Shown: piece by piece, positions 7,898 through 30,649 of the stretch
Layout of the letters: each line of letters opens with the position of its first letter
How positions within the stretch are numbered: position 1 is the first letter of the stretch
From: Kiritimatiellia bacterium
Lineage (GTDB): Bacteria > Verrucomicrobiota > Kiritimatiellia > PWTM01
NCBI GenBank assembly: GCA_026417735.1
Contig: JAOACR010000009.1
Span: 353,298-417,297 of the forward strand
Length of the DNA: 64,000 bases
Direction: 5' to 3'
The notes under the pieces: model-generated
Told to the model about the DNA's origin: nothing
Database searches by the model: none
Seen by the model: the letters and a program-made list of their open reading frames with translations, nothing else
Program-made: the position numbers and the translations under genes

Positions 7898-8345
7898 TCC
7901 ACATGCCGGCGACGCGGCGCAGGGGTGCCGCTTGCCGCCTCGCAAGCCGCGCAGGGGCGCGGCGCGCAGTGGCTTCACGCTCGTCGAGGCACTGGTGGCG
8001 GTGGCGATCGCCGCCGTGCTGGCGGGCGCGGCCGCCGGTGCGTTGATGCTCGTCGTTCGGCTCGACCGTCAGGCATCGCTCACCGAGGATCTTGCCCGGG
8101 CGACTCGCGCCGTTGCCACCGCTCGGCGGTGGGCGGGTTCGGCCGCCTGGTCCAATGGACAACCCGCAGGCGTTCGGGCAGAGTACCGCATAGTGCGGGA
8201 CGGCTCGGGGCCTGACACGGTGGAATGGGCGCTGTGGGAGCTCAGCTCCGTGGAGCGCCCCTCCACCCGTACGCGGCTTTGGTTGGATGGCGCAGCGCGC
8301 CGGTAAACAGACCCCGGATCCCGGTCTCCGCAACAGAGGTGCACA

Positions 8346-11300
8346 ATGAGGGGTCGGCATCGACATCTGCGCAATTGGCGTGCCCCCGCTCTGCTGTTGG
8401 TGTTGCTTGCCGGCTTCACCGGCGCAGACGATCTCGAACGCGCCTTTCGATCGCCGCCGCCGGCCACGGCGCCGTGGTGTTACTGGTACTGGATCAGCGA
8501 CAACGTTTCCACCGCCGGCCTCACGCGCGACCTCGAAGCGATGGCACGTGTGGGCATCCGCGGCGCGCTGATGGGCCACATCTTTTTGGAAGACACCGCC
8601 CGCGGTGACGTTCGGATGCTGTCGGAGGAGTGGTGGGCGGCAGTCGAACACGCCGTGCGAGAAGGAGGCCGACTCGGCGTGGAGATCGGGATGTTCAACT
8701 GTCCTGGCTGGAGCCAGTCCGGCGGGCCCTGGATCGCACCGACGCAGGCGATGCGGCGGGTCGCCTGGTCGGAACTGCGCGCGCGCGGCCCGCAGCCCAT
8801 CGAGCGCCCCCTCCCCCCTCCGCATGAACACTTTCAGGACATCGCGGTGCTCGCCTGGCCGGTCACTTCCGATTCCTCCTCGCCCCTCTGCGATCCCCTC
8901 GCCACCGTGACCGGGTCGCCATCCGTGACGAACGCAGAGCTGACCATGGACGGTCGGCTCGACACTGCGGCGATCGTGCTGCCGGGACCATCGGCGGCGA
9001 TCACCGTGACCACGGCGGTGCCGGCCGTGGTGCGCTCGCTGCAGATCCATCCCGCGCCGATGCCGTTTCGGTGCGACCTCGAGCTTCACGCTTGGCAGAG
9101 CGGCCTCGGCTGGGTTCCGCAGGCGCGCGCCGCCATCGCACGACACCACCTGCGGCCGATCGTCGGCTACTGGACCACCGGTCCGATCGCGATCGCGTGT
9201 GCCCCCGTCACTGCGACTTCGTTCCGGGTGGTGTTCAGTTCGCTCTCCGCGACCGCCGGCATCGCGGAGGTGGAGTTGCGCAGCGGGCCGGTCGTCGAGC
9301 GGTTCGTCGAGAAACAGCTCGCGAAAATGTGCCCCGACCCCGTCCCACCGTGGAGCCACTATCGATGGCGGCCGCAACCCGCCGCGGCAGAAACGGACGG
9401 CGCAGTAGACACTGCGCAGATCACCAACATTTCCGACCGGCTCGGCCCGGACGGCTGGCTGCGGTGGACTCCACCGCCGGGCGAGTGGCGGATCGTCCGC
9501 TTCGGCCTTGCGCCGACAATGGTCAGCAATCATCCCGCCGCACCGGAGGCGCGCGGGCTGGAGGTGGACAAGATGAACCGCGCGCACGCGCGGCATCACT
9601 TCCGCGCCTACGTCGGCCGGTTGCTCGAGCGGATGAGGCCGCGCGAGCGCCGCGCGCTGCGATGGATCGTCGCGGACAGCTACGAAACCGGTGCGCAGAA
9701 CTGGACGGATGGTTTCCGGGACGAATTCGTCCGACGCTATCGCTACGATCCGCTGCATTGGCTGCCGACGCTGCTCGGCGAGGTGGTCGGCACACCGGAC
9801 CGCTCGGATCGCTTTCTGTGGGACCTGCGTCGGCTCGTTGCGGACCGAATCGCAACGGAGTACGTCGGCGCGTTGCGCGATGAGTGCGCGCGGTATGGGC
9901 TGCGGCTGTGGCTGGAAAACTACGGCCACTGGGGATTCCCCTCCGAGTTTCTGTTGTACGGCCGCGAGTCCCACGAGATCGGCGGTGAATTCTGGGCACA
10001 GCCCGGCGGTACCGGCGAGGCGGAGCTGCGCGCGGCATCGTCCGCGGCGGCGGTGTACGGCCGGCGCCGGGTCTCCGCGGAGGCGTTCACCAGCATCCTG
10101 CAGTTCGAGAGCACGCCCGCCTCGCTGAAGGCGCGCGGCGACTGGGCGGTCACCCACAGCATCAACCACTGGGTGCTGCACGTCTACAACCACCAACCGT
10201 GGGACGAACGGCGGCCCGGCGTCAACGCCTGGTTCAGCACCGAGTTTAACCGGCACACACCCTGGTTCGAGCATCTGGGGCCATGGATCGATTACTGGCG
10301 ACGCATCCACGCGCTGATGCAGAGCGGCCGGCGGGTCGCCGACGTCGCGCTCTTCATCGGAGACGACGCGCCCGTGATGACCGGCCCGCGTGCGCGCGAG
10401 ATGCCGGCCGGCTTCGACTACGACTTTGTGAACGCGGACGCGCTCGCCGCTGCGCGGATCCGCGCAGGCCGCTGGACGCTGCGCTCCGGTGCAACGTACG
10501 CGCTGCTGGCTCTCCCCCCCTGGGACGCCATGCGACCGGAAACACTCGCCCGGCTGCGCGAGCTGGTGCGGGACGGTGGCGTGCTGTGGGGGCCACGCCC
10601 AGTCCGCTCACCCAGTCTGGCGGGCTGGCCAAAATGCGATGAGCAGGTCCGGCGCCTCGCGGAGGAGCTCTGGGGCCCCGAACCGCCGCCCGCGGCGGGC
10701 AGCGCGCCTCGCGCACGTACCGTCGGTCGCGGTCGGGTCATCGAGGGCGGCACGCTGGCGGAGGTGCTCACGCTTCTCGGCGTTCCGCCGGCGATCGCAA
10801 ACGCCGGCCCGTTGCTTTGGACCCATCGCACAACACCCGGCGGCGAGGTGTTCTTTGTTTGCCACGGCGGAAACGATCCGGTGATGGTGTCGCCCTGGTT
10901 CCGCGCGGGCCTGCGGCTGCCAGAAATCTGGGACCCCCTGCGCGGCACACAGCAAACCGCGGCCGTTTGGCGCGTGGAAAATGGGGGCATGCGGGTCGCG
11001 CTGCGGCTAGAGCCACGCGGCTCACGGCTGATTGTGTTTCGGCACTCACTTCCCCACCCCGCACTGGCGCTGAACGCCGTGGAGTCCGATGCTCACCGAG
11101 GGCTGACCGTCAACGCCCCCACCGGACCGGACGCACCCGCCGACTTCGCGCCGGCGTCCACCGCCGGCAACTTTACCCTCGCCGGTTGGGCACGACCGAC
11201 CGCGGCGACCGGGTTGCCCTCCGAGACCGCCACGGGAATTCATCTGCAAGTCCCGCGCAATGAGGCGGTGGTCCCGCGGCACGGTGATCACCTGTCGCCG

Positions 11301-12323
11301 GACAACACCTCCGGAACGCACGCGGGCGTCGGTGTCGCGGTCGGGACCAATGGCGTGGTGCTCTGGGAACATGGCGCCAGTTACTTCGTGCCGGTACTGG
11401 TCCATCCGGCAGCGATAACCGACCTCGTCCATATCGCGGTCGTGTACCGGGACCGTCGGCCGGAGCTATGGCTGGATGGGCGACTCGTACGACGGGGACT
11501 GACCGGTGACAAGTTCCCGCTCCCGTCGATCTCACGCCCGACGCCGCCGCCGCCGGAATATCGCGGCGACAGCCGCCCCTGGTTCGCATGGCCTCGGCCG
11601 CTGGAATCCAACGAGATCGCCCGCCTCATCGCGGCGCGGCCGATCGTCAACGAGCCCGAGGGTGATCTGGCGCCGACCGTCGATGCTCTCGATTCAAAGG
11701 GCCGCGCGCGGTTGCGGGTCTTCACGCCCGGAGAGTGGCGCGTCAAGTGGCAGGACGGCTTTTGCGCGACCACGCGGGTGCAGCTGCCGCCGCCGTTGGA
11801 GCTCTCTTGTGGCTGGCGCGTCGCGCTGGAAGGTGGGACGGCGGCGCATGGGCCGGTCGAGCTGGAACGGTTGATGCCGCTCAACGAACACACGAACCCG
11901 CTGCTGCGATACTGTGCCGGCCGCGCCACCTGGTGGATCACTTTCGACTGGACACCGCTGCGCGCGGACGAGGTTTGGCTCGACCTGGGCCGCGTGGAGT
12001 CGGTCGCAGAGGTCCGGCTGAACGGCGAACGGCTCGGCGTGCTGTGGACTCCGCCCTACGCGCTGGAGGTCACCGGCCGCCTGCGGCCGGGCCGCAACGA
12101 GCTAGAAGTGCGCGTGGCAGGCACGTGGCGCAATCGCGTGATCGGCCATCTCCGACATCCCGAGGGTCTTCCCGGCGCCAGCGACGATGACGAGCGTCCG
12201 TGGTTGGCCAGACCCCCGCGGCCGAGCGAGCTGAATGCAGACAGCCCGCTGCAACCCTTTGGCCTGATTGGACCGGTCCTCCTCCGCCCGGCACTCCGAC
12301 CAATCTTGCACCGGCCGGAGTGA
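8346..12323 (+). CDS. large secreted glycoside hydrolase-like protein (family not resolved; possibly GH106-like) with C-terminal jelly-roll domain
   Basis: 1325 aa ORF with GAGG upstream of ATG 8346. Signal peptide, then FRSPPPATAPWCYWYWISDNVSTAGLTRDLEAMARVGIRG. C-terminal block LDLGRVESVAEVRLNGERLGVLWTPPYALEVTGRLRPGRNELEVRVAGTWRNRVIG. Paralog of 48992..51979. Confidence 0.75.
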   Translation: MRGRHRHLRNWRAPALLLVLLAGFTGADDLERAFRSPPPATAPWCYWYWISDNVSTAGLTRDLEAMARVGIRGALMGHIFLEDTARGDVRMLSEEWWAAVEHAVREGGRLGVEIGMFNCPGWSQSGGPWIAPTQAMRRVAWSELRARGPQPIERPLPPPHEHFQDIAVLAWPVTSDSSSPLCDPLATVTGSPSVTNAELTMDGRLDTAAIVLPGPSAAITVTTAVPAVVRSLQIHPAPMPFRCDLELHAWQSGLGWVPQARAAIARHHLRPIVGYWTTGPIAIACAPVTATSFRVVFSSLSATAGIAEVELRSGPVVERFVEKQLAKMCPDPVPPWSHYRWRPQPAAAETDGAVDTAQITNISDRLGPDGWLRWTPPPGEWRIVRFGLAPTMVSNHPAAPEARGLEVDKMNRAHARHHFRAYVGRLLERMRPRERRALRWIVADSYETGAQNWTDGFRDEFVRRYRYDPLHWLPTLLGEVVGTPDRSDRFLWDLRRLVADRIATEYVGALRDECARYGLRLWLENYGHWGFPSEFLLYGRESHEIGGEFWAQPGGTGEAELRAASSAAAVYGRRRVSAEAFTSILQFESTPASLKARGDWAVTHSINHWVLHVYNHQPWDERRPGVNAWFSTEFNRHTPWFEHLGPWIDYWRRIHALMQSGRRVADVALFIGDDAPVMTGPRAREMPAGFDYDFVNADALAAARIRAGRWTLRSGATYALLALPPWDAMRPETLARLRELVRDGGVLWGPRPVRSPSLAGWPKCDEQVRRLAEELWGPEPPPAAGSAPRARTVGRGRVIEGGTLAEVLTLLGVPPAIANAGPLLWTHRTTPGGEVFFVCHGGNDPVMVSPWFRAGLRLPEIWDPLRGTQQTAAVWRVENGGMRVALRLEPRGSRLIVFRHSLPHPALALNAVESDAHRGLTVNAPTGPDAPADFAPASTAGNFTLAGWARPTAATGLPSETATGIHLQVPRNEAVVPRHGDHLSPDNTSGTHAGVGVAVGTNGVVLWEHGASYFVPVLVHPAAITDLVHIAVVYRDRRPELWLDGRLVRRGLTGDKFPLPSISRPTPPPPEYRGDSRPWFAWPRPLESNEIARLIAARPIVNEPEGDLAPTVDALDSKGRARLRVFTPGEWRVKWQDGFCATTRVQLPPPLELSCGWRVALEGGTAAHGPVELERLMPLNEHTNPLLRYCAGRATWWITFDWTPLRADEVWLDLGRVESVAEVRLNGERLGVLWTPPYALEVTGRLRPGRNELEVRVAGTWRNRVIGHLRHPEGLPGASDDDERPWLARPPRPSELNADSPLQPFGLIGPVLLRPALRPILHRPE

Positions 12324-13664
12324 GTGCGCGCAGCCAGTCGTTCGCCGCCAAGACTGCATGCGTCCTGTGCGCCGCACCGGCGGCGGCGATTCGCCCTGTA
12401 TTGTCGGCGACTGCTCTGAGGAGCGCTCAATACCCTCGCAATAGTCGTTGAACACCTCCACCAGACCGGCGCCAAACTCCTCCCAAAGAGAGGCGGACGG
12501 TGGTGCGGTGCGGCCGGCGATCCAGTTCGCGTTGAGCTCAAGAACTGCTGCGGTGATTCCGTAACGGACGAGCCAACCCTCTCCGAACGAACCGGGGTTC
12601 GAGAACGACGGCGCGCTGGTGCCCTCAGTGAACCACGTCCGCGCACGGAGACAGCGCTCGAATAGCGCGATGCGACGGAGGTAGCCCTCCGCCGCAACGC
12701 CCGCCGGTCGGGCGATGTGCAGCCGCCCCCCCGCGTCGTTGTGTAGATCCAGCGCGAGCGTCGGCGGGCCCACGTCGCGAATGCGGCGCTCGACCCACTC
12801 CTCCAGCGCCCGGTTCTCCGGCGCCAACTGGAGATCCGCCGGCCGGTCCATGCGCCGGTTCAGATCGGCACCCAGAACGTTGAAACGCGTCATACCGCGA
12901 GCAACGCCGTCCTTGTTCGCCATCGGCATCACGTGCACGGACGCGCGCGCCATCAGCCGCCGCACGCCCTCATCACCCTGCGCCAGCCGCCGAAGCAAAC
13001 CTTGCACGACCCAGCTCCCGCCCGCTTCCCAAGGGTGTGCGCGGGCGCGCACAAGGAACGCGTGGCGGGCGCGAGCCGGCCCGACCGAGACAATCTCCAA
13101 CGGCCGCCCCTCTACCGTTTGGCCGATCGTTTCAACCCGAACACCGTCCCGGCCGCGCAGCCCATCGAGCAGCTGCGCCAGATCGGAAAGGCGATAGGGC
13201 TCGACCCGCGCGACCCACACCGGCGAGGAAACCACTCCGATCTTTGCCCGCACCAAGTTCGAGTGCACCATTTCGGTGGGCACAGAAGTCCAGTTCTGAC
13301 CATCCGCGGAGACGACCAACCGCTTCAGCTCAACGGCGACCGAGCCGGGGCGCCCGTTCCAGATGTTCAGGAGGTTCGTGAACTCGAGCATCCAGGTCGT
13401 ACCCGCCGGCGCGTGAAATCGAAAATAGATGTGCCCCGCCGCGCGATTCGACGTGCCGCGTTCGTGGTCATACAGCAAATGGAGACGAAGCGCCCGTTCC
13501 CCCACTGGCTCCCACCACAGGGGCGAACCGTTTTCAATCGTGGTTTCAAGGAAGGGAAGTGTCGCAGGACCGTTGGCGGCGCCGTCATCCGCAAATACCG
13601 CAGCGATGAACACGAGGGCCACGCAAGCCGATCCTGCACGGGCTCGCACGGCCGGAGAGATCAT
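12102..13664 (-). CDS. M14-family zinc carboxypeptidase-like protein (secreted)
   Basis: Track ORF 12102..13691 minus. Start at ATG 13664 (MISPAVRARAGSACVALVFIAAVFA, signal peptide). ETIGQTVEGRPLEIVSVG...ARAHPWEAG...LALDLHND resemble M14 zinc-ligand blocks. The 3-prime 222 bp overlap the convergent gene ending at 12323. Confidence 0.6.
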   Translation of the reverse strand: MISPAVRARAGSACVALVFIAAVFADDGAANGPATLPFLETTIENGSPLWWEPVGERALRLHLLYDHERGTSNRAAGHIYFRFHAPAGTTWMLEFTNLLNIWNGRPGSVAVELKRLVVSADGQNWTSVPTEMVHSNLVRAKIGVVSSPVWVARVEPYRLSDLAQLLDGLRGRDGVRVETIGQTVEGRPLEIVSVGPARARHAFLVRARAHPWEAGGSWVVQGLLRRLAQGDEGVRRLMARASVHVMPMANKDGVARGMTRFNVLGADLNRRMDRPADLQLAPENRALEEWVERRIRDVGPPTLALDLHNDAGGRLHIARPAGVAAEGYLRRIALFERCLRARTWFTEGTSAPSFSNPGSFGEGWLVRYGITAAVLELNANWIAGRTAPPSASLWEEFGAGLVEVFNDYCEGIERSSEQSPTIQGESPPPVRRTGRMQSWRRTTGCAHSLRPVQDWSECRAEEDRSNQAKGLQRAVCIQLARPRGSGQPRTLVIVAGAGKTLGMSEMADHAIAPRACHAHF

Positions 13665-13779
13665 TCGCGCGCCGCGCTCACAAGCTCCCATTGTCGTCTT
13701 TCTGACTCATGCGTCATTCTACGTTCGGCTCAGCGCCGCCCCCCTCCAGCCCCCCTTCCGAACCACGCAGGCGGTGGCC

Positions 13780-14673
13780 CTAGCGGCCGGCTCCCGCAGC
13801 CTGCGGAAAGTCATTTACAAAGGAACGCACCACCTCCGCAAACGGCGTGAAACGAGAGAAGCCCAACCGCCGTATGAGGTCGGTCGCCAGTTGCGAGTCC
13901 CGTGGTCGAGCCGCACGACGCGGTACCACCTCCGAGGACGGGCGGATGTGCCCAGCGCTCCACCCAAGGACGTCGGCGGCAGCACGAATCATGTCATGGC
14001 GGGTCATGGCCTCTTCGCCGCTGTAGTGCACCACCCCCGCAAACCCCTGGCCAATGAGAAACCCGATCGCTTCTGCGACGTCGCGAATCCAGGTGGGAAA
14101 CCGCCGCAGCACCGCATCGGCGGTTTGCGGCGCCGGCGAGCGCAGCGCGCAGACGATTTGATACAGGAAACCGGACGACTCAAATGTCGGTCCCGACCCC
14201 ACCAACAAGGGAATCCGCAGCACGATCGAGTCCGGCCGGGTCAAGACCGCGTCTTCCGCCTCGATCTTGCTGCGGCCGTACTCATTCACTGCGCGGCGGG
14301 GGCTGTCCTCGCGGTACGGTGGCGAGTCGCCGTCAAATACATAGTCGGTGCTCACGAACAGCACCCTCGTGGAAGCGGGCAGCTCGTGCATCAGCTCGAT
14401 CACGGGCGCGGTGTTCAGCGCACGCGTTTCTTCCGGGTTTTCCTCACAGAAGTCCGGCTCGCGGTACGCGGCCAGATGCACGACCCAGTCGGGCCGATGT
14501 TCGGCCAGCAGAGGCCGCCAGACGCCCCGGCGGCGCAAGTCCAGCGCAATGCCCCCCTCCGGCGCGTGACGCCCGCCCACCGGCATCACCGTATGCTCCG
14601 CCGCCAGCCGGCGCGTCACCTCGCGGCCAAGAAAACCTGTCGCCCCTGTGATCAGCAGCTTCATTGCCGACAC
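13780..14673 (-). CDS. dTDP-4-dehydrorhamnose reductase family protein (RmlD-like NAD(P)-binding sugar-nucleotide reductase)
   Basis: 297 aa. MKLLITGATGFLG Rossmann motif, STDYVFDG and YGRSK blocks typical of the RmlD substrate-binding family. Confidence 0.75.
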   Translation of the reverse strand: MSAMKLLITGATGFLGREVTRRLAAEHTVMPVGGRHAPEGGIALDLRRRGVWRPLLAEHRPDWVVHLAAYREPDFCEENPEETRALNTAPVIELMHELPASTRVLFVSTDYVFDGDSPPYREDSPRRAVNEYGRSKIEAEDAVLTRPDSIVLRIPLLVGSGPTFESSGFLYQIVCALRSPAPQTADAVLRRFPTWIRDVAEAIGFLIGQGFAGVVHYSGEEAMTRHDMIRAAADVLGWSAGHIRPSSEVVPRRAARPRDSQLATDLIRRLGFSRFTPFAEVVRSFVNDFPQAAGAGR

Positions 14674-15022: not shown

Positions 15023-15481
15023 TCAATCGAACGCCGGTGTGCCGTATTGGACGGGCGGGACCACGCGATTGGCTTGGCTGAAGCCGACAATCACCCATCC
15101 GCGGCCGCGCCGTTGCAGTCGAGCCACTTGTCGCTCGTTCCGATCTTCGAATACGAGCTCAACCTCGGCCTCCGCGAAGCTGTCCGGCGAGCCGCCCATC
15201 GTCTTCACCGCCACTCCCCGCAGCCCGCGGACCCACCCGGCCACCCCGTTGTCCGCACCGGAGGGGCGGGCCTCGCTGCGGAGGGCGTCGAGGGACTGCC
15301 TCAGCGGCCCCGCCGCCAGCCGCATTGCGGCGTTCGCATCGCCGCGCGCGACCGCATCAAACCAGGCGGTCACAACCTGCTCGGGCGTCGCCGGCGAGCT
15401 GCGGCGGCCCACCCAGACCCCAAAGGCCGCCAGTGTCGCGACGAGCGCCCCGCGGCCGATCCATTCCAAGGCCGATCTCAC
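15023..15481 (-). CDS. hypothetical small membrane-anchored protein, last gene of the SPFH operon
   Basis: In-frame GTG at 15481 overlaps the HflK-like stop as GTGA. Predicted product has one N-terminal hydrophobic helix (GALVATLAAFGVWV) then a soluble domain (VVTAWFDAVARGDANAAMRL...VELVFEDRNERQVARLQRRGRGWVIVGF). The track ORF 15023..15631 would extend the start into the upstream gene. Confidence 0.45.
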   Translation of the reverse strand: MRSALEWIGRGALVATLAAFGVWVGRRSSPATPEQVVTAWFDAVARGDANAAMRLAAGPLRQSLDALRSEARPSGADNGVAGWVRGLRGVAVKTMGGSPDSFAEAEVELVFEDRNERQVARLQRRGRGWVIVGFSQANRVVPPVQYGTPAFD

Positions 15482-16446
15482 CGTTCGACCGCCTCCGGCA
15501 GCACCAGGTCGACCCGCCGGCGTGCGCGTTCGTCCAGCACGATCATTCGCAGGCGAGGCAGAACCTCCTCCGCGGCTTCGATCGCAAGTCGTAGCGCCGT
15601 GGCGCTCGGGTCGACGCGGTACCGTTCCCACATCGCGAGGAATGCGGCCGCCTCGCCACGGGCACGCAGCACACGGTCGCCCGCCTCACCACGTGCAGCC
15701 GCAAGGATCTGGCCGGCCTCGCCTCTTGCCCGGGGCAGCAGCCGGCTCGCATAACCCTCCGCTTCGTTGATCGCCCGCTGCCGATCCTCGCGCGCGGCCG
15801 CGACGTCGCGAAAAGCGTCGGCCACTTCGGGAGGGGGGGCGATCTCCTCCATCGTCACCGCGACCACCCGCACACCCAGCCCGAGCGCGTCCGCAGCCTG
15901 CTGTGTGCGCGCGCGCAACGCCTCCTGAAGTTCGGGTCGCGCGACGGTCAGCAGCCGGTCCACATCCATGACCGCCACCTCACGACCCAACGCGGCGGCG
16001 GCCAGATCGCCGAGCATCGCCTCCAGCACAGCCGCCCGGAACAAAAATGCCCGTGGATCCTCGATCCGGTACTGCACCACGCCCGCCAGTCGGACGAGGT
16101 TCCGATCACCCGTCAGATGTTCGAGCGCGGCGCCGGGGCGTCCTGCATCGCGCACCGCGCTGAGCGGCCCGATCGGCACGCGTCGCAGCTCCTGCAGCCG
16201 CACGCGCCGCACCCGGTCCAGACCGATCGGCAGCCCCAGATGGAGGCCGGGGCCGCGCAGCTCCGGCAGCATGCGGCCCATCCGTTGAACCACCGCCTGT
16301 TCGTTCGGCTGCACGGTGTAGAGCCCCGTCAACCCCCATGCGACCATAGCCAGAACGATCGCGGCGGCTGCTGGGCGGCGGCCCCGCACGGCGCGCGGGA
16401 CCAGCGGCGTGGCGGGGCGCGCGGCCGGCGGATGGTCATGATGCAT
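15478..16446 (-). CDS. hflK: SPFH/band-7 protein, HflK-like
   Basis: LTGLYTVQPNEQAVVQRMGRMLPELRGPGLHLGLP...VVQYRIEDPRAFLF matches the HflK N-terminal SPFH region. Start ATG 16446 (GTG 16449 possible) overlaps the HflC-like stop. Confidence 0.8.
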   Translation of the reverse strand: MHHDHPPAARPATPLVPRAVRGRRPAAAAIVLAMVAWGLTGLYTVQPNEQAVVQRMGRMLPELRGPGLHLGLPIGLDRVRRVRLQELRRVPIGPLSAVRDAGRPGAALEHLTGDRNLVRLAGVVQYRIEDPRAFLFRAAVLEAMLGDLAAAALGREVAVMDVDRLLTVARPELQEALRARTQQAADALGLGVRVVAVTMEEIAPPPEVADAFRDVAAAREDRQRAINEAEGYASRLLPRARGEAGQILAAARGEAGDRVLRARGEAAAFLAMWERYRVDPSATALRLAIEAAEEVLPRLRMIVLDERARRRVDLVLPEAVER

Positions 16447-17342
16447 CACCGCGGCGACTCCGGCGCCATCGCGCCCGCCTCAAAAAGGTGCCGCAGCAGC
16501 GGCGAATCGGATGCCAGCAGTAGCGTTGTCTGCCGGTCAAGAAACCGCCGTGCCCCCTCGAGACTGCGGACGAGCTGGTAGAACACCGGATCCCGCCGAT
16601 GCGCCTCCGCGTAGATGCGGGTCGCCTCGGCCTCAGCCCGCCCTCGTACCTCCTCGGCCTCCGCCGCGGCCTGCGCCAGCAGCACGGTTCGTTCGCGGTC
16701 GGCCTCCGCGCGGATGCGCATCGCCTCCTCCTCGCCCTCCGCGCGGTACTGGCGGGCGATCCGCGCGCGCTCCGACCGCATACGCTGAAACACGTTCTCG
16801 CGCACCTGCGCCGGCAGGTTCACCCGTTTCACGCGGACATCGGCGATCTCAATCCCATAGGCCTCCGCGGCGCGCCTCGCGCATCGCTCCGCGACCGCCG
16901 CAACGATCCGGTCCAGCCGGTGTTCCGCCGCGTTCGTCGAAACGAACGCCTCCATTGGATTGCGCCCCGCTTCCGCCGCCATTTCCGACCACACCAAATC
17001 GTGCAGCCGCGCCTCCGCGCCGCCCATGTCAATCACGGTCTCCAGGAACCGGCGCGGCTGCACAATCCGCCAGATCACAAACAGGTCCAGATCGAGATTC
17101 TTCTTCTCGCGGGTCAGAAACTCGGACGGCCGCGGATCGTACAACTGCAGCCGGCGATCGAGCCGCAGCACCGACTGCCATGGCGCCGTCCAGTGCAGTC
17201 CCGGGCCGGGCAGATCGCGGACCGGCCGGCCGAACTGCGTGACGATCGCGTATTCCGTCTCATCCACGAAGACCGGTGTGCGCACCGCGGCGAGCACCAG
17301 CACGCCCGCGGCCAGCGCCTCAAGGAACCTCGACCGTTTCAT
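16446..17342 (-). CDS. hflC: SPFH/band-7 protein, HflC-like
   Basis: TPVFVDETEYAIVTQFGRPVRDLPGPGLHWTAPW...SEFLTREKKNLDLDLFVIWRI aligns with HflC blocks. Start ATG 17342 overlaps the upstream stop as ATGA. Confidence 0.8.
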   Translation of the reverse strand: MKRSRFLEALAAGVLVLAAVRTPVFVDETEYAIVTQFGRPVRDLPGPGLHWTAPWQSVLRLDRRLQLYDPRPSEFLTREKKNLDLDLFVIWRIVQPRRFLETVIDMGGAEARLHDLVWSEMAAEAGRNPMEAFVSTNAAEHRLDRIVAAVAERCARRAAEAYGIEIADVRVKRVNLPAQVRENVFQRMRSERARIARQYRAEGEEEAMRIRAEADRERTVLLAQAAAEAEEVRGRAEAEATRIYAEAHRRDPVFYQLVRSLEGARRFLDRQTTLLLASDSPLLRHLFEAGAMAPESPR

Positions 17343-20311
17343 TGCGGTGACCCTCTCGTTTCCTCAGCGGCCGGCGCCAGGCCGCGCTCCGCGCCGGCCG
17401 CCGGGGGTGTCGGCTCGAGGCGACCATCCGCCATCAGCCAGAGCACGCGCCGGCCTGCGCTGTCGCCGGCGTCCACGATCCATTTCGGGCGGCCCGCCAG
17501 TGCAGACTCCACCGCCTCCCAGCGCAGACGCGCGGCAACCACCTCTGGCGCCACCGCATAGGCGGAGGCGACCGCAGTGAACCGGCGCGCTTCGCCCGCG
17601 GCGCGGGTCCAGCGACTGGTCGCCGCCGCCCGCGCGCCGATCACCCGTGCCGCCGCCTCGCCGCGCGCGGCCGCGCGCAGCGCCAGCGCGTCCGCCTGCG
17701 CCGAGTTGATCTCCGCCTCGCGCGCCTCCTGAGCCGCCGCCACTTCGCGAAAAGCTGGCACCACTTCCAGCGGCGGATGCACATCCGCCAACCGCACGTC
17801 CCGCACTTCAAACGCGTTCGCGTACTGCGCCAGCAACCGCTCCAGCCGTTCCCGCACGCGCGCTTCGATCTCCGAGCGTTGCTCGGCCATCAGCTCGCTT
17901 GCCGATCTGGCTGCCGCCTCCGCGCGCAGCGCCGACTCCGCCGCCCGCCGGACCAGCTCGTCCCAGAGCGGGCGCCCCTCCCGATCGTTTCGGCCGAGGC
18001 GAAACAGCGCAGCGTAGGGATCGCGAATGCAGTAGTGCACGACCGCCTTGACGTCCACGAGGTTTTCGTCGCCGGTCCACACCTCCGCCTCGGCTGGCAC
18101 GCGGCTGTACCGGCCGCCCCGATGCTGCACGTTCCACTCGTACGCCGGCGGTTCGGTGTTCGCAGCGGTCAGATCTGCACGGAAGCCGATCTCCACACGA
18201 CGCACTTCCAGAGGCCGCAACCGATCACGCCGCCCGAATGGCCAGGGCGCATGCAGATGCAGGCCCGGCCCCAGCGGAGAGGCATGTGCACGGCCGAATG
18301 TGCGCACGATCGCCACCTCGCCAGGCCCGACCACCACCAGGCCACTCGTCCCCCATCCCAGCAGCCCCAGCGCGCACACAGCCCTCACCCAGCCCCGCCG
18401 GTGCGTTCTCGCCCATTCCGCCCAGCACTCGAGCCGATGTCGCCACGCGCCCGGCTCGACGAGCAGCCGCATCGAGTTCAATACCACTGCGAGCGAACCC
18501 ACTTGGTGCCAGACCGCCGCCGCCACCGGAGGCAACCATCCGGCCGCCGCCGCCGCAATGCCGATCACGTTGAAGCCAAACGTGAACAGCGCCACGTTTT
18601 CAATGATCGTCCGCCGGGCGCGGCGCGCGGTTGCGATCGCGCGCGGGATTTTTCGCAGATCACCCCCCACCAACACCACGCTGGCCGACTCCATGGCGAG
18701 GTCGGAGCCGATATCCGCAGGCGCAATCCCAACATCGGCGGCCTGCAGCGCCGGCGCGTCGTTCAGGCCATCGCCAACCATCGCCACCGGCCCGCCCTCC
18801 GCGGCGGCGCGGCGTACCTCCGCAATTTTGTCCGCCGGCAGCAGTTGCGCGCGCACCTCGGTGAGGCCGAGCGCGCGCGCGACCGCGCGGGCCACCGACT
18901 CGTGGTCGCCGGTCAGCATCCGTAGGCGGCGGATGCCAAGATGTTCGAGCTCGTGCAACGCGGCGGCGGCCTCGGAACGCACCACATCGGCGATCGCGAT
19001 CACGCCGATCGCACGCTCTCCGCGGGCAACCCAGACCAGCGTCAGACCGCGCTCCGCGAGCGCGAGGCCCCGCTCGTCCAGCTGACGCGTGACCGCCACA
19101 CCGGATTGCTCGAACCATCGTCGGTTGCCGGCCCGCGCGGTCCCGCCCGACACCACCGCCTCCGCGCCGAGGCCCGCTTGCGAACGCCAGTCCGTCGCCG
19201 GGGGCACCTGCAGGCCGCGTGCCTCGACCGCAGCGGTGATCGCGCGTGCCAGCGGATGCGCGGAGCCGGCTTCGACCGCCGCCGCGATCGCGAGCACCGA
19301 GTCCTCCGACTCACCCGGCTCCGCGACGACCTCCGTCACCACCAGCCGCGCCTGGGTCAGCGTGCCTGTTTTGTCGAACAGCACGGTTCGAACTCGTGCA
19401 AGGGTCTCCAGCGCCGCGCCGCCCTTCACCAGCACGCCATGCCGGGCCAGCGCGCCGATTGCCGCGACAACCGCGGTGGGCGTCGCCATCACCAGCGCGC
19501 AGGGACAGGCCACCACCAGCACCGAGACTGCCCGCACGAGGTCGCCGGTCCGCCAGCCCACCACCGCGGCGATCACGAGCACGATCGGGACAAACCATGA
19601 CGCCCATCGGTCCGCGAGGCGCTGGATCGGCGCGCGTGCGGCGGCGGCCTCCTCCACCAGATGCAGTAACCGACCGAGCGTGGTCTCCGCGCCCACTCGC
19701 TCGACCACCACGTCGAGCGCGCCATCGAGCGGCGTGGTGCCTTCGTACACCGGATCTCCGGCGGTCTTGTCCGCGGGGACCGATTCGCCCGTCAGCGCGC
19801 TCTCATCGACCGCCGCAGCGCCGGCAGCAATGCGGCCGTCGGCAGGCACGCGTTCGCCGGGCCGCAACCGCACCCGGTCGCCCGGCACCAACTGCCCGAC
19901 CGGGACGATCACCTCCACACCGTTGCGGAGCACCCGCGCGGTCTCCGGACGCATCCGCAGCAGCGCAGAGATGCCCGCCCGCGTGCGGGCGACAGTGGTC
20001 TCCTCGAGAAACTCCCCGAGGAGCATGATGAAGATGACTTCCGCGGCCGCGAGCGGCTGGCCGACGTAGAGCGCGCCCAACGCGGCCAGGGCCACCGCGA
20101 GGTCCGCGCACAGCCGGCCGTGCAGCAGCTCCGCGGCCGCGCGCCAGTAGATCGGCCAGCCGCCGGCCAGCGCCACCACCAGCGCCGCATCCCAGCCGGC
20201 GACCTCGCGCCAGCGTCCCGTCAAATACGCCAGCAGCCCTGCGCCGACCAGCGCCAGCCGAATCGCACCCCGCGCACGCGGCCGGATCAAAAACTCAACC
20301 GGACGGGGCAT
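17339..20311 (-). CDS. P1B-type heavy-metal-translocating P-type ATPase with C-terminal fused transmembrane helix and SPFH (HflK-like) domain
   Basis: 990 aa continuous ORF. ATPase motifs: TGESVP, CPC in ACPCALVMATPTAV, DKTGTLT, SAHPLA, GDGLNDAPAL; no N-terminal HMA domain. After the last ATPase helices comes WVRAVCALGLLGWGTSGLVVV, then GPGEVAIVRTFGRAHASPLGPGLHLHAPWPF...DVKAVVHYCIRDPYAALF (SPFH/HflK-like). Confidence 0.8.
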   Translation of the reverse strand: MPRPVEFLIRPRARGAIRLALVGAGLLAYLTGRWREVAGWDAALVVALAGGWPIYWRAAAELLHGRLCADLAVALAALGALYVGQPLAAAEVIFIMLLGEFLEETTVARTRAGISALLRMRPETARVLRNGVEVIVPVGQLVPGDRVRLRPGERVPADGRIAAGAAAVDESALTGESVPADKTAGDPVYEGTTPLDGALDVVVERVGAETTLGRLLHLVEEAAAARAPIQRLADRWASWFVPIVLVIAAVVGWRTGDLVRAVSVLVVACPCALVMATPTAVVAAIGALARHGVLVKGGAALETLARVRTVLFDKTGTLTQARLVVTEVVAEPGESEDSVLAIAAAVEAGSAHPLARAITAAVEARGLQVPPATDWRSQAGLGAEAVVSGGTARAGNRRWFEQSGVAVTRQLDERGLALAERGLTLVWVARGERAIGVIAIADVVRSEAAAALHELEHLGIRRLRMLTGDHESVARAVARALGLTEVRAQLLPADKIAEVRRAAAEGGPVAMVGDGLNDAPALQAADVGIAPADIGSDLAMESASVVLVGGDLRKIPRAIATARRARRTIIENVALFTFGFNVIGIAAAAAGWLPPVAAAVWHQVGSLAVVLNSMRLLVEPGAWRHRLECWAEWARTHRRGWVRAVCALGLLGWGTSGLVVVGPGEVAIVRTFGRAHASPLGPGLHLHAPWPFGRRDRLRPLEVRRVEIGFRADLTAANTEPPAYEWNVQHRGGRYSRVPAEAEVWTGDENLVDVKAVVHYCIRDPYAALFRLGRNDREGRPLWDELVRRAAESALRAEAAARSASELMAEQRSEIEARVRERLERLLAQYANAFEVRDVRLADVHPPLEVVPAFREVAAAQEAREAEINSAQADALALRAAARGEAAARVIGARAAATSRWTRAAGEARRFTAVASAYAVAPEVVAARLRWEAVESALAGRPKWIVDAGDSAGRRVLWLMADGRLEPTPPAAGAERGLAPAAEETRGSPQ

Positions 20312-20329: not shown

Positions 20330-23300
20330 CTAGGGGGTGACCGTGATCCACATCGGCGAAACCCACACGAGCTCGCCGTCCGCCTGCTCTCCCCGCACAT
20401 AGTAGTAACGCGCCGGCCCCGGCTCCGCCGACATGTCGGTCCACTGGAAGTAGACGTCTGCCGAATTCGGTTCCTCGGTGTGCACGTAGGCGCCATCGCG
20501 GATGATGTGGACGCGCGCGAACGGCGCGGTACCCCGCAGCCTCACCTGCAACGTTGGCCGGCCGCGAATGGAGAACTCCTCTCCCATGAAATGTTCTCCG
20601 CAGCGGACGTCCGCAAGGATGTTGTCGGTGGCGCCGTACACGCGCCGCGCCTTCATCCCGGCGACGATTCCCTCGGGCGTGAGGTCTTCCACCCAAACGT
20701 TGCAGTAGCTGATGTGCGTGGAGGTATGGTCGCTCGAGGCCTGGAAACCGAGCCGATATCCCTTCTTCAGCGCGCGCGACACAAACCCAAGCGGCCGCCA
20801 GCCACCGATGGAGTGCTCCGCGGTGTTCGCCCTCGGCGCGCCGGGCATCTCGTAGTTCTGACGGCAACCCTGGTAGATTTCCACCACCGGTTCCACCTTC
20901 GGGTTGTTGTCGCGCCAATCGGTGCCCATGTCGGTCCCGCTGGTGTGACTGGCGCAAATCCCGTCGTGTTCCGCCAGATAGCGGTAGAGCATCTGTGTGT
21001 CCGGCGAGCTTGGCCGGTCCGCATCCTCCGGCAGATCGTCCATCGCTTTGCCGAGCCCTCCGCGCAGCCGGTGCAGCGTGCGCACACCCCGCTGCGCGAA
21101 CACCACGTTGCGGTGCCCATCGGGATAGCTCACGGACCGCTCATACGAGTAGACCGGCGCAAATGCGCCGGGCACTCGGAATAGATCCGTCGTTTTCTGG
21201 ATGATCCACCACGGATATTCCCGGCCACCGCCGTTGTCGTGGTCACCGTTGCCGATCCACTCCAGCGCAGCCGCATCGAGACCGTAGCGCCACATGTCCA
21301 TCAGCATACCGTCGCCGCCGCCATCGCTGGAGATTTCGGTGTGCCGGTGGAACTCGCCGCGCGCCAGCCGGTACGTCCGCCCACCCACCGTCACCCGCGC
21401 CGCGCGCAACGCGGCCACATCGCGCTCTTCTTTCCGCGCCCGCTCGTCCTTGCCCGCCACCGCCGGCGCCGTCGCCAACGGTCGCAGTTGCGGCGGTGCC
21501 GCGGGCCGGAAGGGCGACGAGAGCCGGGCGGCCACCAGCTCGCTGTTGACCGGATCCGGCCAACGAGCCTTTAGCACCGGCTCTGCCACCATTTGCCCTT
21601 CCCGGCGCAGTTCCCGCACAAACCAGTCGGGCAGACGCGCCGCGGTCTCGATGCGGCCGTCGGATGCGCACACCATCGCGAGCGCACCATCCGAAAGCGC
21701 CGCAAACGCGGGCCGGCTGTCCAGCAGGTGATCGCTGCGGTCGCAGATGATTTCGTCCGACCAGCGATCCCCCTCGTACCAGGCCAGATGCGTCAGCCAT
21801 ACCGTACCGACCCCTACCCGGCCGCCCGCGCGGGCGGTCCGCACCGCCAGCCACACCCGCCCCGCCGGATCATACGCCAGCACCGGCAGCGCAAGCGTGC
21901 CCCGGCGTCGGGCTCCTCGGCTGCCCGCCGCCGGCCGGCGCGAGGCTAGCGCGGGCGGCGCAAACGCCTCCGCCGCCGGCTGCACCGGCTCCGCCCAGCT
22001 TCCACGATCCCACACGCGCACCTCGACGGACCGCTCCATCAGCAAGCCAACGCCCTTGTCCCGCACCGCCGCACCAAAGTCCTTGCCCCAGAGCTCCGGG
22101 CTTTTCTCATACGCCACCCACAGTCGCCCATCACGGTCAAAGACCATGCTGGGCCGCATCTCGCCCGCCGCCGACGCGGCCACCGGCACGATCTCCTCCC
22201 AACGGCCGGCCGCCCATCGCCGCAAAAACACGTCGTAGTTGCCATGTTCGTATGAATCCCACGCGATCGCGACCTGACCGTCCTCCGATGCCGCGATTGC
22301 CGGCCCCCACTGGTTCCCCGGCCGGTCGCTCACCACCTGGGGCGACCCGATCCGCTCCCCCTCCTGCCGCGCGGCCAGTATGTCCGCATGGCCATCCTCG
22401 CGGAACGCCATCCACGTCACCCACACCCGCCCCTCCCGATCCCTCGCTGCCGCGGGCAAGAGATCAGGGCCGGCCGACTTCGTCAGCGCCTGCGCCGGCG
22501 ACCACTCGTCCGCCGCGCGCCGTCTCGCGAAGAGATCCCAACGGCCATCCTGTTTTGCGGTCCAAAACACCCACACCGATCCCTGTCCATCCACCGCGGC
22601 AGCCGGCCGGAACACGTCGCCACCGGCCGGCGTAACCTCCCAGGGGCCATCCCAGCGGCCGTTCTTCCAGCGCATCAGCAGAACCTGGTCGCCGCCGGTC
22701 GGCTCCGCGAGATCCGCAAATGAATCCGGCATCTCGGTTGGTTCATTGCGCACCCGGAACTTCTCCCCGTGCCGGAACGCTACATACGCGACATACAGCC
22801 CACCGTCCGGCCCCACCGCGACGGCCGGCCAGTCGTCCTCGGTCGGTGCGGAGAGAATCGTTGTGGCCGCGGCCGCTCGAGACACGGCCACCAGCCCATC
22901 CATCCGCCAGACCGCGCGGCCACCGTCCAGCTCGTTGAGCCGCACCTGAAAGTCCCCCTGCGCGGTGCGGAACCGCAGCTCGGTCTCCGCGGTGGTATCG
23001 GCCAGCTCGATCAGCAGCGCCGAGTCCTGCAGCGGCATCGTCTCATGGCCGCGCTGTCGCTGTTCCCGATTCCACGGAATGGACCGCCGCGTGGTCACCT
23101 TCCAGGTCGCCCCGGTGACCAGATCGCGCGGATCCCGCCACCAGCTGCGAATCGCGACCACTCGCCCCGGGGAGACTTCAAGCGAGCCGTCCCACACCGT
23201 CGGTTCCTTTCGGCCGGCCGCGCCGCGGCTGCCGAACTCAACCCGCAGCACGGTCAGGCCGGCCGCCGGAAGCGGCGAGGTGGTGGGCGCCTCCTCTGCA

Positions 23301-23449
23301 CCACCGCTGCCGCCCCCCACCACGGTCCGCCGCCGCCCCACCCGTGCGCGGGCCTCCGCGCCAAACGCCGACCATGCCGCCGCCACCATCGCCGCCAGCG
23401 CCACCGCGCCCACAGCAAGGGGCGCCCATCGTCGCAGCCACCGGCTCAT
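20330..23449 (-). CDS. secreted protein with N-terminal beta-propeller-like repeats and C-terminal PHP-like (CehA/McbA-type) metallohydrolase domain
   Basis: 1039 aa with signal peptide MSRWLRRWAPLAVGAVALAAMVAAAWSAFGA. Repeated W-x-W...DG..D-hydrophobic blocks (VWVFWTAKQDGRWDLFARR, VWVTWMAFREDGHADILAAR, VAIAWDSYEHGNYDVFLRRW). C-terminal GEFHRHTEISSDGGGDG...GNGDHDNGGG resembles the PHP HxH...DG motif. Confidence 0.6.
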   Translation of the reverse strand: MSRWLRRWAPLAVGAVALAAMVAAAWSAFGAEARARVGRRRTVVGGGSGGAEEAPTTSPLPAAGLTVLRVEFGSRGAAGRKEPTVWDGSLEVSPGRVVAIRSWWRDPRDLVTGATWKVTTRRSIPWNREQRQRGHETMPLQDSALLIELADTTAETELRFRTAQGDFQVRLNELDGGRAVWRMDGLVAVSRAAAATTILSAPTEDDWPAVAVGPDGGLYVAYVAFRHGEKFRVRNEPTEMPDSFADLAEPTGGDQVLLMRWKNGRWDGPWEVTPAGGDVFRPAAAVDGQGSVWVFWTAKQDGRWDLFARRRAADEWSPAQALTKSAGPDLLPAAARDREGRVWVTWMAFREDGHADILAARQEGERIGSPQVVSDRPGNQWGPAIAASEDGQVAIAWDSYEHGNYDVFLRRWAAGRWEEIVPVAASAAGEMRPSMVFDRDGRLWVAYEKSPELWGKDFGAAVRDKGVGLLMERSVEVRVWDRGSWAEPVQPAAEAFAPPALASRRPAAGSRGARRRGTLALPVLAYDPAGRVWLAVRTARAGGRVGVGTVWLTHLAWYEGDRWSDEIICDRSDHLLDSRPAFAALSDGALAMVCASDGRIETAARLPDWFVRELRREGQMVAEPVLKARWPDPVNSELVAARLSSPFRPAAPPQLRPLATAPAVAGKDERARKEERDVAALRAARVTVGGRTYRLARGEFHRHTEISSDGGGDGMLMDMWRYGLDAAALEWIGNGDHDNGGGREYPWWIIQKTTDLFRVPGAFAPVYSYERSVSYPDGHRNVVFAQRGVRTLHRLRGGLGKAMDDLPEDADRPSSPDTQMLYRYLAEHDGICASHTSGTDMGTDWRDNNPKVEPVVEIYQGCRQNYEMPGAPRANTAEHSIGGWRPLGFVSRALKKGYRLGFQASSDHTSTHISYCNVWVEDLTPEGIVAGMKARRVYGATDNILADVRCGEHFMGEEFSIRGRPTLQVRLRGTAPFARVHIIRDGAYVHTEEPNSADVYFQWTDMSAEPGPARYYYVRGEQADGELVWVSPMWITVTP

Positions 23450-26811: not shown

Positions 26812-26930
26812 CGCACACCTCCGTGCGGGCATCCTTCATCGCAGCGGGCCGAAGGCTCGTCAAGCCTCTCGAACCCGTCCCGCCCGCCCTGCGGGTTGCG
26901 AGCAGCCACCTAAACGCGCATCATCGCAAC

Positions 26931-28094
26931 GTGAAGATCGTCTGCGCGGAGAGCGTGCTGGCCGGCGCGGAAGCGTTCACCACGCTCGGGGAAACCACCG
27001 TGCTGCCCGACCGCGCCATCCGGCGCGAGCACCTGCTGGATGCGGACGCTCTCGTGATCCGATCGAAGACTCGCGTCACGCGCGAGCTGCTCGACGGCAC
27101 GCCTGTAAAGTTCGTCGGCACCGCGACCGCCGGATTCGACCACATTGACATCGCCGCGTGCGAGGCGCTCGGCATCGCGTGGACCGCCGCCCCCGGCTGC
27201 AACGCGACCAGCGTTGCGGAGTGGCTCGTCGCCGCATTGCTCGTCTGGTCCCAGCGCCGCGAGCGGACGCTGCAGGGCCGTTCGATCGCGGTGATCGGTG
27301 TCGGCCAAGTCGGCAGCCGGGTGGCTCGCCGCGCAGAAATCCTCGGTCTGCGGCCATTGCTGAACGACCCACCGCGCGCGCTCGCGGAGGGCGACCCCTG
27401 CTTCCGGCCGCTCGATGAAGTGTTGCCCAGCGCCGACATCGTCACGTTACACGTTCCGCTGACCGACCAGGGCCCGTTCGCCACGCGCGGCATGGCGGAC
27501 TGCCGTTTCTTCGAGCAGCTGAAGCCGGGCGCGCTGTTCGTGAACGCCTCCCGCGGGGAGGTCGTGGACGAGGACGCGCTGACTCTGGCGCTCGACAGCG
27601 GCCAGGTCAGCGACGCGGTGCTGGACGTCTGGCAGCACGAGCCGGCGATTTCGCCGCGTCTTTTGGAGCGCGCGCTGCTCGGCACCCCCCACATCGCCGG
27701 CTACTCGTGGGACGGCAAGCTCGCTGGCACCGTTCAGGTCTACCAGGCGTGCTGTCGCTTCTTTGAGGTCCGCCCGCTGTGGCGGCCGGCGGAGGTTTCG
27801 CCGGGCGTCCCTCCCCCACGCATCGAGGTCATGCCCGATGCCGACGCTTCGCTGCGCGCCGCAGTTCGCGCCGTGTACGATATCGAGCGTGATGACCGCG
27901 CACTGCGCGGCGACGGCGCGCCACCGGGCGAGACGCTCGCGGACCGCTTCGAGCGGCTGCGGCGGCGCTACCCCGTACGCCGCGAGTTCGCCGCCGCCAC
28001 GCTGCTATGGCCCGGCCAGCTCGACGATCCGCCGGCCCGGCGGCTTGCCGCGCTCGGCTTCCAGGTGCAGCCAGCAAAGGGCCTCAACTCGTGA
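26931..28094 (+). CDS. pdxB: erythronate-4-phosphate dehydrogenase
   Basis: Strong PdxB-like collinearity from the GTG at 26931: VKIVCAESVLAGAEAF...DADALVIRSKTRVTRELLDGTPVKFVGTATAGFDHID...APGCNATSVAEW...VIGVGQVGSRV...LHVPLT...HIAGYSWDGK...VYDIERDD. The track ORF start at 26700 would overlap the GH51 gene. Confidence 0.85.
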   Translation: MKIVCAESVLAGAEAFTTLGETTVLPDRAIRREHLLDADALVIRSKTRVTRELLDGTPVKFVGTATAGFDHIDIAACEALGIAWTAAPGCNATSVAEWLVAALLVWSQRRERTLQGRSIAVIGVGQVGSRVARRAEILGLRPLLNDPPRALAEGDPCFRPLDEVLPSADIVTLHVPLTDQGPFATRGMADCRFFEQLKPGALFVNASRGEVVDEDALTLALDSGQVSDAVLDVWQHEPAISPRLLERALLGTPHIAGYSWDGKLAGTVQVYQACCRFFEVRPLWRPAEVSPGVPPPRIEVMPDADASLRAAVRAVYDIERDDRALRGDGAPPGETLADRFERLRRRYPVRREFAAATLLWPGQLDDPPARRLAALGFQVQPAKGLNS

Positions 28095-28131
28095 TAATTT
28101 GGAAGGGAGACTCACAACCCAGGGAGACACC

Positions 28132-29001: not shown

Positions 29002-29028
29002 ACAGGCGGCGGGCGGGGCGCTTGCGCC

Positions 29029-30644: not shown

Positions 30645-30649
30645 TTCGC

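Follow-up and report, generated by a model that had tools for sequence, protein, structure and literature searches.

P1B-type ATPases and CDF exporters fused to an HflK-like SPFH domain: a conserved gene cassette found in a Kiritimatiellia bacterium suggests a role for HflK/HflC-type cages in metal export

What the SPFH cages (HflK/HflC, stomatin, flotillin, prohibitin) do, and for which client proteins, is debated, and a locus at which a client is written into the gene of a cage subunit raises the question of what such a cage is for. We analyzed a 64-kb stretch of the genome of a Kiritimatiellia bacterium (positions 353,298 to 417,297 of contig JAOACR010000009.1, GenBank assembly GCA_026417735.1), hereafter the window, in whose numbering all positions are given unless a locus is named. 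A single open reading frame (ORF) in this window joins a P1B-type ATPase, i.e., a metal pump, to an HflK-type SPFH domain (HflK'), and it is followed by genes for an HflC-like SPFH protein (HflC'), a free HflK-like SPFH protein (HflK'') and a small protein, all on the minus strand. Because a second kind of exporter, unrelated to the first, is found in the same fused state, the cassette suggests that cages of the HflK/HflC type organize metal export and do not serve the FtsH protease alone.

An earlier note on this DNA, made from the letters alone, had read the 990-aa frame as a complete P1B core that continues into an extra transmembrane (TM) helix and an SPFH domain whose start aligns with HflK. 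It had further described HflC-like, HflK-like and small-protein genes with overlapping stop and start codons, and had proposed as checks a Pfam scan of the product and a search of other genomes for the fusion and its synteny. All of this was borne out. The scan found E1-E2_ATPase (residues 120–291, 7.6e-58), Hydrolase (307–526, 5e-33) and Band_7 (660–875, 1e-22) in the 990-aa product, and the NCBIfam P1B model TIGR01525 scored 563.3 bits against a cutoff of 346.25. The motifs TGES (174), CPC (269), DKTGT (313), SAHP (350) and GDGLNDAP (513) were all present and were invariant in 30 relatives. The frame crosses the pump/SPFH junction without a stop and without a change of frame, with the extra helix marked by a hydropathy peak at residues 644–662, and both the fusion and the gene order proved to be conserved in other genomes. 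All three stop/start overlaps are likewise present: ATGA at 17339–17342, where the HflC' start lies on the pump stop codon; GTGA/TGATG at 16446–16449; and GTGA at 15478–15481, where the GTG start of the small-protein gene overlaps the HflK'' stop codon. The series pump::HflK', HflC', HflK'' and small protein is a translationally coupled operon. The window has a G+C content of ~70%, and the numerous long antisense ORFs found in it are the usual by-product of DNA of that composition. Coordinates of all features are collected in Table 1.

Table 1. Features of the cassette and its surroundings, in positions of the 64-kb window; residue numbers refer to the 990-aa fusion protein.
Feature	Position	Strand	Description
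P1B ATPase::HflK' fusion	17339–20311	−	single ORF, 990 aa
P1B-type ATPase part of fusion	18452–20311	−	residues 1–620; MA, MB, M1–M6 and A, P and N domains
Arg/His-rich linker from M6 to extra helix	18395–18451	−	residues ~621–639
Ninth TM helix of fusion	18326–18394	−	residues ~640–662; counterpart of HflK's only TM helix
HflK-type SPFH1/SPFH2, coiled-coil and C-terminal region	17432–18343	−	residues ~657–960
Family-specific insert in SPFH domain	18086–18178	−	residues ~712–742, '...TEPPAYEWNVQHRGGRY...E'
'DVHPP' with D843 and H845	17777–17785	−	end of SPFH domain
HflC-like SPFH protein (HflC')	16446–17342	−	298 aa, one N-terminal TM helix; NCBI 'protease modulator HflC', MCX7818596.1
Free HflK-like SPFH protein (HflK'')	15478–16449	−	ORF of 323 aa; 322 aa from the NCBI ATG at 16446; one TM helix; MCX7818595.1
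Small protein	15023–15481	−	152 aa, GTG start; NCBI hypothetical protein of equal length
Propeller/DUF3604-like protein	20330–23449	−	1039 aa, upstream of pump gene
GH26	6068–7897		
GH106 rhamnosidase	8346–12323		
M14 peptidase	12102–13691		
RmlD-like reductase	13780–14673		
Arabinofuranosidase-like	24451–26832		
ThuA	27763–29001		

The identical 990-aa protein is held by NCBI as 'MAG: heavy metal translocating P-type ATPase [Kiritimatiellae bacterium]' (P0001). The window is a single contig of a metagenome-assembled genome (MAG), and a stop codon lost, or a frameshift, between a pump gene and hflK would give the same picture. Among the 120 best relatives (42–76% identity, ~950–1300 aa), which come from many sources, 119 contain all three Pfam domains in one ORF, the exception being a 770-aa protein on a 4-kb contig; the architecture is thus common to at least 119 protein clusters and is not a frameshift artefact. 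Full-length fused ORFs numbered 67 among 81 loci from at least five phyla, and the linker and ninth helix keep their sequence character across the relatives, so that an assembly or annotation artefact is ruled out for practical purposes and retains next to no probability. In several MAG loci (L031, L032, L044, L046, L071, and L075), pump or SPFH genes are spread over two or three frames, which may represent assembly indel errors and not pseudogenes.

A scan of one genome per species, with two peptide patterns that single out the SPFH part, recovered relatives from 370 species genomes of at least five phyla. Judged by record title, the best 80 carriers comprised 38 Acidobacteriota, 25 Planctomycetota, 8 Armatimonadota, 2 Verrucomicrobiota, 1 Gammaproteobacteria and 6 unclassified, and they were MAGs without exception. 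Database names of the relatives are automatic (e.g., 'heavy metal translocating P-type ATPase' or 'HflK protein'). In the literature searched (P-type, P1B or CDF together with SPFH or HflK), no description was found of an SPFH domain joined to a P-type or CDF exporter, and the fused arrangement apparently is undescribed. The possible novelty raised in the earlier note therefore stands for the searched literature but not for the databases, where the architecture is common. Because P1B ATPases and SPFH proteins are both well-known families, the design is not categorically new.

The C-terminal part of the fusion is related to HflK over its whole length. Band_7 (PF01145) scored 81.5 bits on the fusion and 100.6 and 77.6 bits on the other two SPFH proteins, against a cutoff of 23.6. 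A profile made from residues 636–990 and their relatives matched E. coli HflK in the PDB (7vhp) at 1.3e-56, from the TM helix on, and HflC at only 2.6e-14. The HflK alignment spans HflK residues 80–141 and 148–371, i.e., from the TM helix to the C-terminal region, and its gap corresponds to a family-specific insert only. The fused domain falls below the equivalog cutoff of the HflK model TIGR01933 (134.6 bits vs. 159.4) and is 35% identical to the free HflK'' paralogue. Its ninth helix aligns to E. coli HflK 80–100, and immediately ahead of that helix the relatives share a consensus 'RRRR'. The C-terminus of P1B pumps after M6 is cytoplasmic, as established by the CopA and ZntA structures, and the linker would be cytoplasmic as well because of the Arg-rich 'RRRR' and the positive-inside rule. 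A cytoplasmic M6 end, followed by an Arg-rich linker and a ninth helix, places the SPFH body of the fusion in the periplasm, like that of HflK; this location is predicted from topology rules and homology.

The insert covers ~37 profile positions where E. coli HflK has 6 residues, and ~18 residues ('TEPPAYEWNVQHRGGRYS') relative to the free HflK'' paralogue. A phmmer search with residues 690–770 (the insert and its flanks) against 1.84 billion representatives gave 184 matches. Sorted by motifs, the best 148 of these included at least 41 P1B fusions, together with 21–29 proteins of 550–660 aa that carry CDF motifs, and Pfam confirmed Cation_efflux together with Band_7 in all eight CDF candidates tested. 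The CDF parts have HxxxD in TM2 and again in TM5, which we take to be the His2Asp2 site of Zn-type CDFs; to our knowledge, CDF proteins transport metal only out of the cytoplasm. Both genomic contexts retrieved (L083, 7256–11094, and L084, 133–3714) have the CDF::SPFH gene followed by two Band_7 genes, of which the first is the HflC' orthologue (45–47% identity, E-values of 1e-87 to 1e-94) and the second the HflK'' orthologue (36–40% identity, ~1e-69). Judged from these sequence relationships, one SPFH trio is used by two families of metal exporters that are unrelated to each other, both of the cytoplasm-to-periplasm kind.

The fused domain also has a residue signature of its own. Within the insert, Y724, W726, H730 and E741 are invariant. 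In an alignment of 67 P1B-fused, 27 CDF-fused and 66 free HflK-like domains, W726, H730, E741, D843 (D or E) and H845 were found in 67/67 of the P1B-fused and in 26–27 of the 27 CDF-fused domains; in the free paralogues (n = 66) His occurs at neither of the two His positions, and the remaining positions are gaps or other residues. E741 closely precedes the strand that comes first after the insert, and D843 and H845 belong to the 'DVHPP' motif. We suspect that W726, H730, E741, D843 and H845 lie near each other in space, and the insert residues together with D843/H845 make a candidate periplasmic metal site. One apparently stand-alone SPFH protein with the insert (P0354) lies at the start of its contig, where its frame runs on from a CDF fragment upstream, and it was rejected as a free form. 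Two further insert-bearing SPFH genes (P0322 and P0335) begin only 13 nt away from a contig end and may be either fused or free.

To follow the conservation of the partner genes, we compared the window proteins with 82 related loci by tblastn and took downstream counts on the 63 loci that have at least 3 kb of downstream sequence. The order pump::K'-C'-K''-small is kept nearly throughout, with HflC' after the fusion in 62/63 loci, HflK'' in 61/63 and the small protein in 52/63. HflC' exceeds the equivalog cutoff of the HflC model TIGR01932 (177.6 vs. 134.4 bits) and HflK'' that of TIGR01933 (185 bits), in agreement with their NCBI names, and HflK'' has neither the insert nor the His signature. 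The small protein has an N-terminal TM anchor and an alpha3-beta4 domain, helices then strands. It gave no Pfam or NCBIfam match even at E ≤ 10, and a word-index search found four relatives only; by clustering, its family is present in 64/81 loci across phyla. The C-terminal tail of this family, PYGTP(V/A)(F/Y), is conserved across phyla and resembles a docking peptide.

Pump residues 39–617 align to Shigella ZntA (4umv) 152–729 at 1.8e-97, and bit scores against ZntA (331), CopA (325) and the P1B-4 pump sCoaT (7qbz; 308) are similar. Given one further N-terminal hydrophobic segment and the retained GG kink of MB, the pump has the standard eight-helix topology (MA, MB, M1–M6). Only ~16 residues precede MA, and no HMA domain was matched in the window pump or in seven longer relatives. 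Membrane residues invariant in 30 members are C269-P270-C271 in TM4, F576 and N581 in TM5, and P595, H602, Q603, S606, N612 and S613 in TM6. Compared with LpCopA/AfCopA, FN replaces YN in TM5, V..NS replaces M..SS in TM6 and there is an extra HQ upstream; compared with SsZntA, N replaces the TM5 Lys (K693) and HQ replaces AD714 in the region of the TM6 Asp. The TM5/TM6 alignment thus ruled out both the P1B-1 (Cu+/Ag+) subgroup, with its TM5 YN and TM6 MxxSS, and the P1B-2 (Zn2+/Cd2+/Pb2+) subgroup, with its TM5 Lys and TM6 DxG. Scores lay far below the equivalog cutoffs of CopA (349 vs. 1316 bits) and of the ZntA models (387–430 vs. 1005–1240 bits). On this residue pattern we place the pump among the P1B ATPases as a subtype of its own (CPC / N / HQ..S..NS, no HMA), which is neither P1B-1 nor P1B-2.

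The unit probably extends upstream, past what the earlier note had covered, to the 1039-aa gene, which ends 18 nt before the pump ATG and is probably the first gene of the unit, albeit a facultative partner. Among the 48 loci with enough upstream sequence, 19 have a homologue no more than 10 kb to either side of the cassette, and 11 have one directly upstream on the same strand, so that this gene is a frequent neighbor, enriched beside the cassette. These neighbors occur in Kiritimatiellia, Planctomycetota, Armatimonadota, Acidobacteriota and a gammaproteobacterial MAG, sometimes in two copies or on the opposite strand. At one locus (L002, 4496–7998) the pump is preceded by both the small-protein gene and the homologue of the 1039-aa protein, the latter split over several frames. 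The 1039-aa protein has an N-terminal signal or anchor helix (hydrophobic residues 11–29) and a seven-bladed beta-propeller (AlphaFold2 pLDDT 86.7, with propeller structure matches). Pfam gave only weak Reg_prop and DUF3604 matches, numerous homologues are tagged DUF3604 (PF12228), and a sequence search found no solved relative. Invariant residues of its C-terminal domain (H701, H703, D736-H737-D738, E770, H779, H835, D907-H908, and H912) form a His/Asp pattern that we take to recall metal centers of the PHP or amidohydrolase type, an unconfirmed lead.

Carbohydrate-active and envelope enzymes are abundant on both sides of the cassette (3169–14673 and 24451–31996; Table 1), and in other genomes none of these enzymes of the window is kept beside it. 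Other candidate neighbors (a sulfatase, a kinase, a nonribosomal peptide synthetase-like protein, etc.) were found at no more than 12/81 loci and were treated as chance.

On balance we lean, with little more than even confidence, toward a scaffold or cage of SPFH proteins that is dedicated to metal exporters, carrying them and letting a divalent metal out next to a cluster of periplasmic His, Asp and Glu residues. The catalytically intact, HMA-less ATPase would end in the cytoplasm after M6, with the Arg-rich linker and ninth helix leading to a periplasmic HflK-type body. By homology to E. coli HflK/HflC, this body would form a ring or cage together with HflC' and HflK''. That the fusion takes part in such a hetero-oligomer is favored because K', C' and K'' are co-inherited with overlapping codons and because the fused part keeps the whole coiled-coil and C-terminal region. 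The pump would then be the cage subunit's own client, taking the place of the HflK N-terminal tail and sitting in or on an enclosed membrane patch, and HflK'' may dilute the bulky pump-bearing subunits. A divalent transition metal would be moved from cytoplasm to periplasm, the metal probably being Zn/Co-like by analogy, because His2Asp2 CDF exporters are fused to the same SPFH variant, and it would be freed beside the W/His/Glu/Asp/His cluster that is specific to exporter-fused SPFH domains. The purpose may be local retention of the metal and its controlled hand-over to the small protein and, in ~40% of loci, to the DUF3604-like propeller protein, or clustering and stabilization of the pump, or both. 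Such a scaffold would presumably act independently of FtsH. A precedent for scaffolded P1B-ATPase platforms is PacL1/CtpC of Mycobacterium tuberculosis, in which the ATPase relies on a flotillin-like scaffold protein, encoded alongside it and anchored in the membrane, that gathers the pump in membrane foci and stabilizes it (PMC9374683).

Several points weigh against this proposal. The scores of HflK'' and HflC' exceed the equivalog cutoffs set for FtsH modulators, so that a link to FtsH keeps some probability. The ligands of TM4–6 (CPC, N, HQ..S..NS) have no counterpart among solved subtypes in the comparison with CopA and ZntA, and the closeness of the five signature residues is conjecture from sequence. 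That the three SPFH proteins build a cage, with the pump inside it rather than outside, we infer by analogy. As to the supposed recipients, the small protein is absent from both CDF cassettes examined (n = 2), and its AlphaFold2 model is of low confidence (pLDDT 52), so that only the secondary structure was used. The DUF3604-like gene is missing from ~60% of loci, and the putative metal-enzyme nature of its domain is read from weak hits and a motif pattern. Finally, induction of a look-alike cluster of Pseudomonas aeruginosa by Zn depletion is ill-suited to simple detoxifying efflux (PMC4542158, PMC11761036).

That last point leads to a different account, in which the cassette is the fused counterpart of hmtA-PA2436-PA2439 and the ATPase serves metal uptake or the supply of scarce Zn to envelope proteins. 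In P. aeruginosa PAO1, the P1B ATPase HmtA, reported as a Zn/Cu importer, adjoins three SPFH genes (PA2437-2439), which are mentioned in passing as presumed FtsH partners; the PA2434-PA2439 cluster is induced by Zn depletion at the RNA and protein level and has a weak putative Zur site (PMC4542158, PMC11761036). Gene content matches that of our cassette, but the cassette is likened to PA2435-PA2439 by gene content alone, P1B ATPases are generally exporters according to a review, and the same SPFH variant is fused to CDF proteins, which are known only as exporters. We consider metal acquisition or sparing quite improbable as the function. Export that supplies periplasmic enzymes with metal at times of scarcity would be compatible with an exporter-carrying scaffold and is no true rival to it. 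The scaffold might also be more than a platform: the SPFH paralogues could form a closed periplasmic chamber with P1B or CDF pumps as wall subunits, a nanocompartment for metallation or metal retention, which we regard as doubtful. The His/Glu/Asp site in the wall would catch exported Zn-like ions there and pass them to client proteins, enclosed or docked (the anchored small protein and DUF3604-like enzymes), instead of their being lost through the outer membrane, a proposal we hold just as tentatively. If it is true, SPFH cages would gain a new function, and metalloproteins of the envelope a new route of maturation.

The equivalog scores of HflC' and HflK'', and the homology of the fused part to HflK over its whole length, would equally suit a normal HflK/HflC cage round FtsH, in which the fusion tethers the pump inside and FtsH controls its turnover. 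FtsH degrades the P-type ATPase MgtA under small-protein control; papers on MgtS and MgtA are among the references of a study of HflK/HflC. The earlier note had stated that no FtsH is nearby, and a motif scan for the FtsH signature (HEXGH plus GPPGxGKT) indeed found none in the window or in the 82 related loci. What defines HflK is its association with FtsH and the alternating 12:12 cage formed with HflC, not gene proximity; the absence is weak evidence and carries little weight, because hflKC of E. coli is not known to be adjacent to ftsH either. A permanent covalent tie to a degradation chamber would, however, be an odd way to regulate a pump, and the independent fusion to two unrelated exporters, with a His/Asp/Glu signature specific to the fused SPFH domains, points to a metal role rather than a protease role; we think quality control centered on FtsH unlikely. 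Alternatively, the fused domain could be a stomatin-like, cis-regulatory or lipid-sensing module of the pump that forms no closed cage, with the extra paralogues belonging to a separate complex. Eukaryotic stomatin-family proteins modulate channels and transporters, and the abstract of an HflK/HflC study describes SPFH proteins forming open arcs as well. Against such a module stand the near-perfect co-inheritance of K', C' and K'', with overlapping codons, in P1B and CDF cassettes, and the retention of the whole coiled-coil and C-terminal region in the fused part, and we give it a small chance.

Should exporter-carrying scaffolds of this kind be confirmed, their interest would reach beyond this locus. 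A cage subunit joined to two unrelated exporter families, each with matching partner subunits, is Rosetta-stone evidence for metal exporters as a new class of clients, and the fused SPFH domain is a distinct variant, found also on CDF exporters, which the earlier note had not recognized. The pump::HflK' fusion is a naturally tethered complex and as such suited to cryo-electron microscopy. For metal biology, the cassette offers an uncharacterized P1B subtype (CPC / N / HQ..S..NS, no HMA) along with a candidate periplasmic acceptor site. With carriers in Planctomycetota, Acidobacteriota, Armatimonadota, Verrucomicrobiota/Kiritimatiellia and some Proteobacteria, the system is likely relevant to metal handling in soils and sediments.

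Among characterized systems, the pump shares its core fold, its eight TM helices and the motifs TGES, CPC, DKTGT, HP and GDGxNDxP with CopA (3rfu, 3j08), ZntA (4umv) and sCoaT (7qbz), but it lacks an HMA domain and has F..N instead of YN or K in TM5 and HQ..S..NS instead of MxxSS or DxG in TM6. E. coli HflK/HflC-FtsH (7vhp, 7wi3, 9cz1) provides homologues of the fused part, HflK'' and HflC', all with one N-terminal TM helix, an SPFH domain, a coiled coil and a C-terminal region, and with equal predicted topology (N-terminus inside, body periplasmic). E. coli has two such paralogues, whereas the cassette has three, and in the fusion the cytoplasmic N-terminal tail of HflK is replaced by an entire P1B ATPase. 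The fused domain differs from E. coli HflK by an insert of 20–37 residues and by its His/Glu/Asp signature, and it scores below the HflK equivalog cutoff. SPFH-NfeD operons (stomatin or QmcA with NfeD/YbbJ) likewise pair an SPFH protein with a small membrane-anchored partner; that partner is NfeD, whereas the small protein of the cassette has no NfeD match and instead has the alpha3-beta4 domain and the PYGTP tail. The likeness of PacL1/CtpC is functional only, namely a scaffolded pump: PacL1, a DUF1490 protein, is small and cytoplasmic and contains Glu/Ala repeats; it is neither an SPFH protein nor fused to the pump, and its foci exclude the flotillin homologue Rv1488 and do without it (PMC9374683). 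No cassette protein matched DUF1490 (PacL). The closest known cluster by gene content is HmtA-PA2437-2439 of P. aeruginosa. PA2434-PA2439 comprises a P1B ATPase, HflC-family, HflC and HflK-family SPFH genes and small hypotheticals, a parts list like that of the cassette when compared by gene content only. In PAO1 the pump and SPFH genes have separate locus tags and are unfused, whereas here they are fused, and the fused cassette offers a reading of the neglected SPFH genes beside hmtA.

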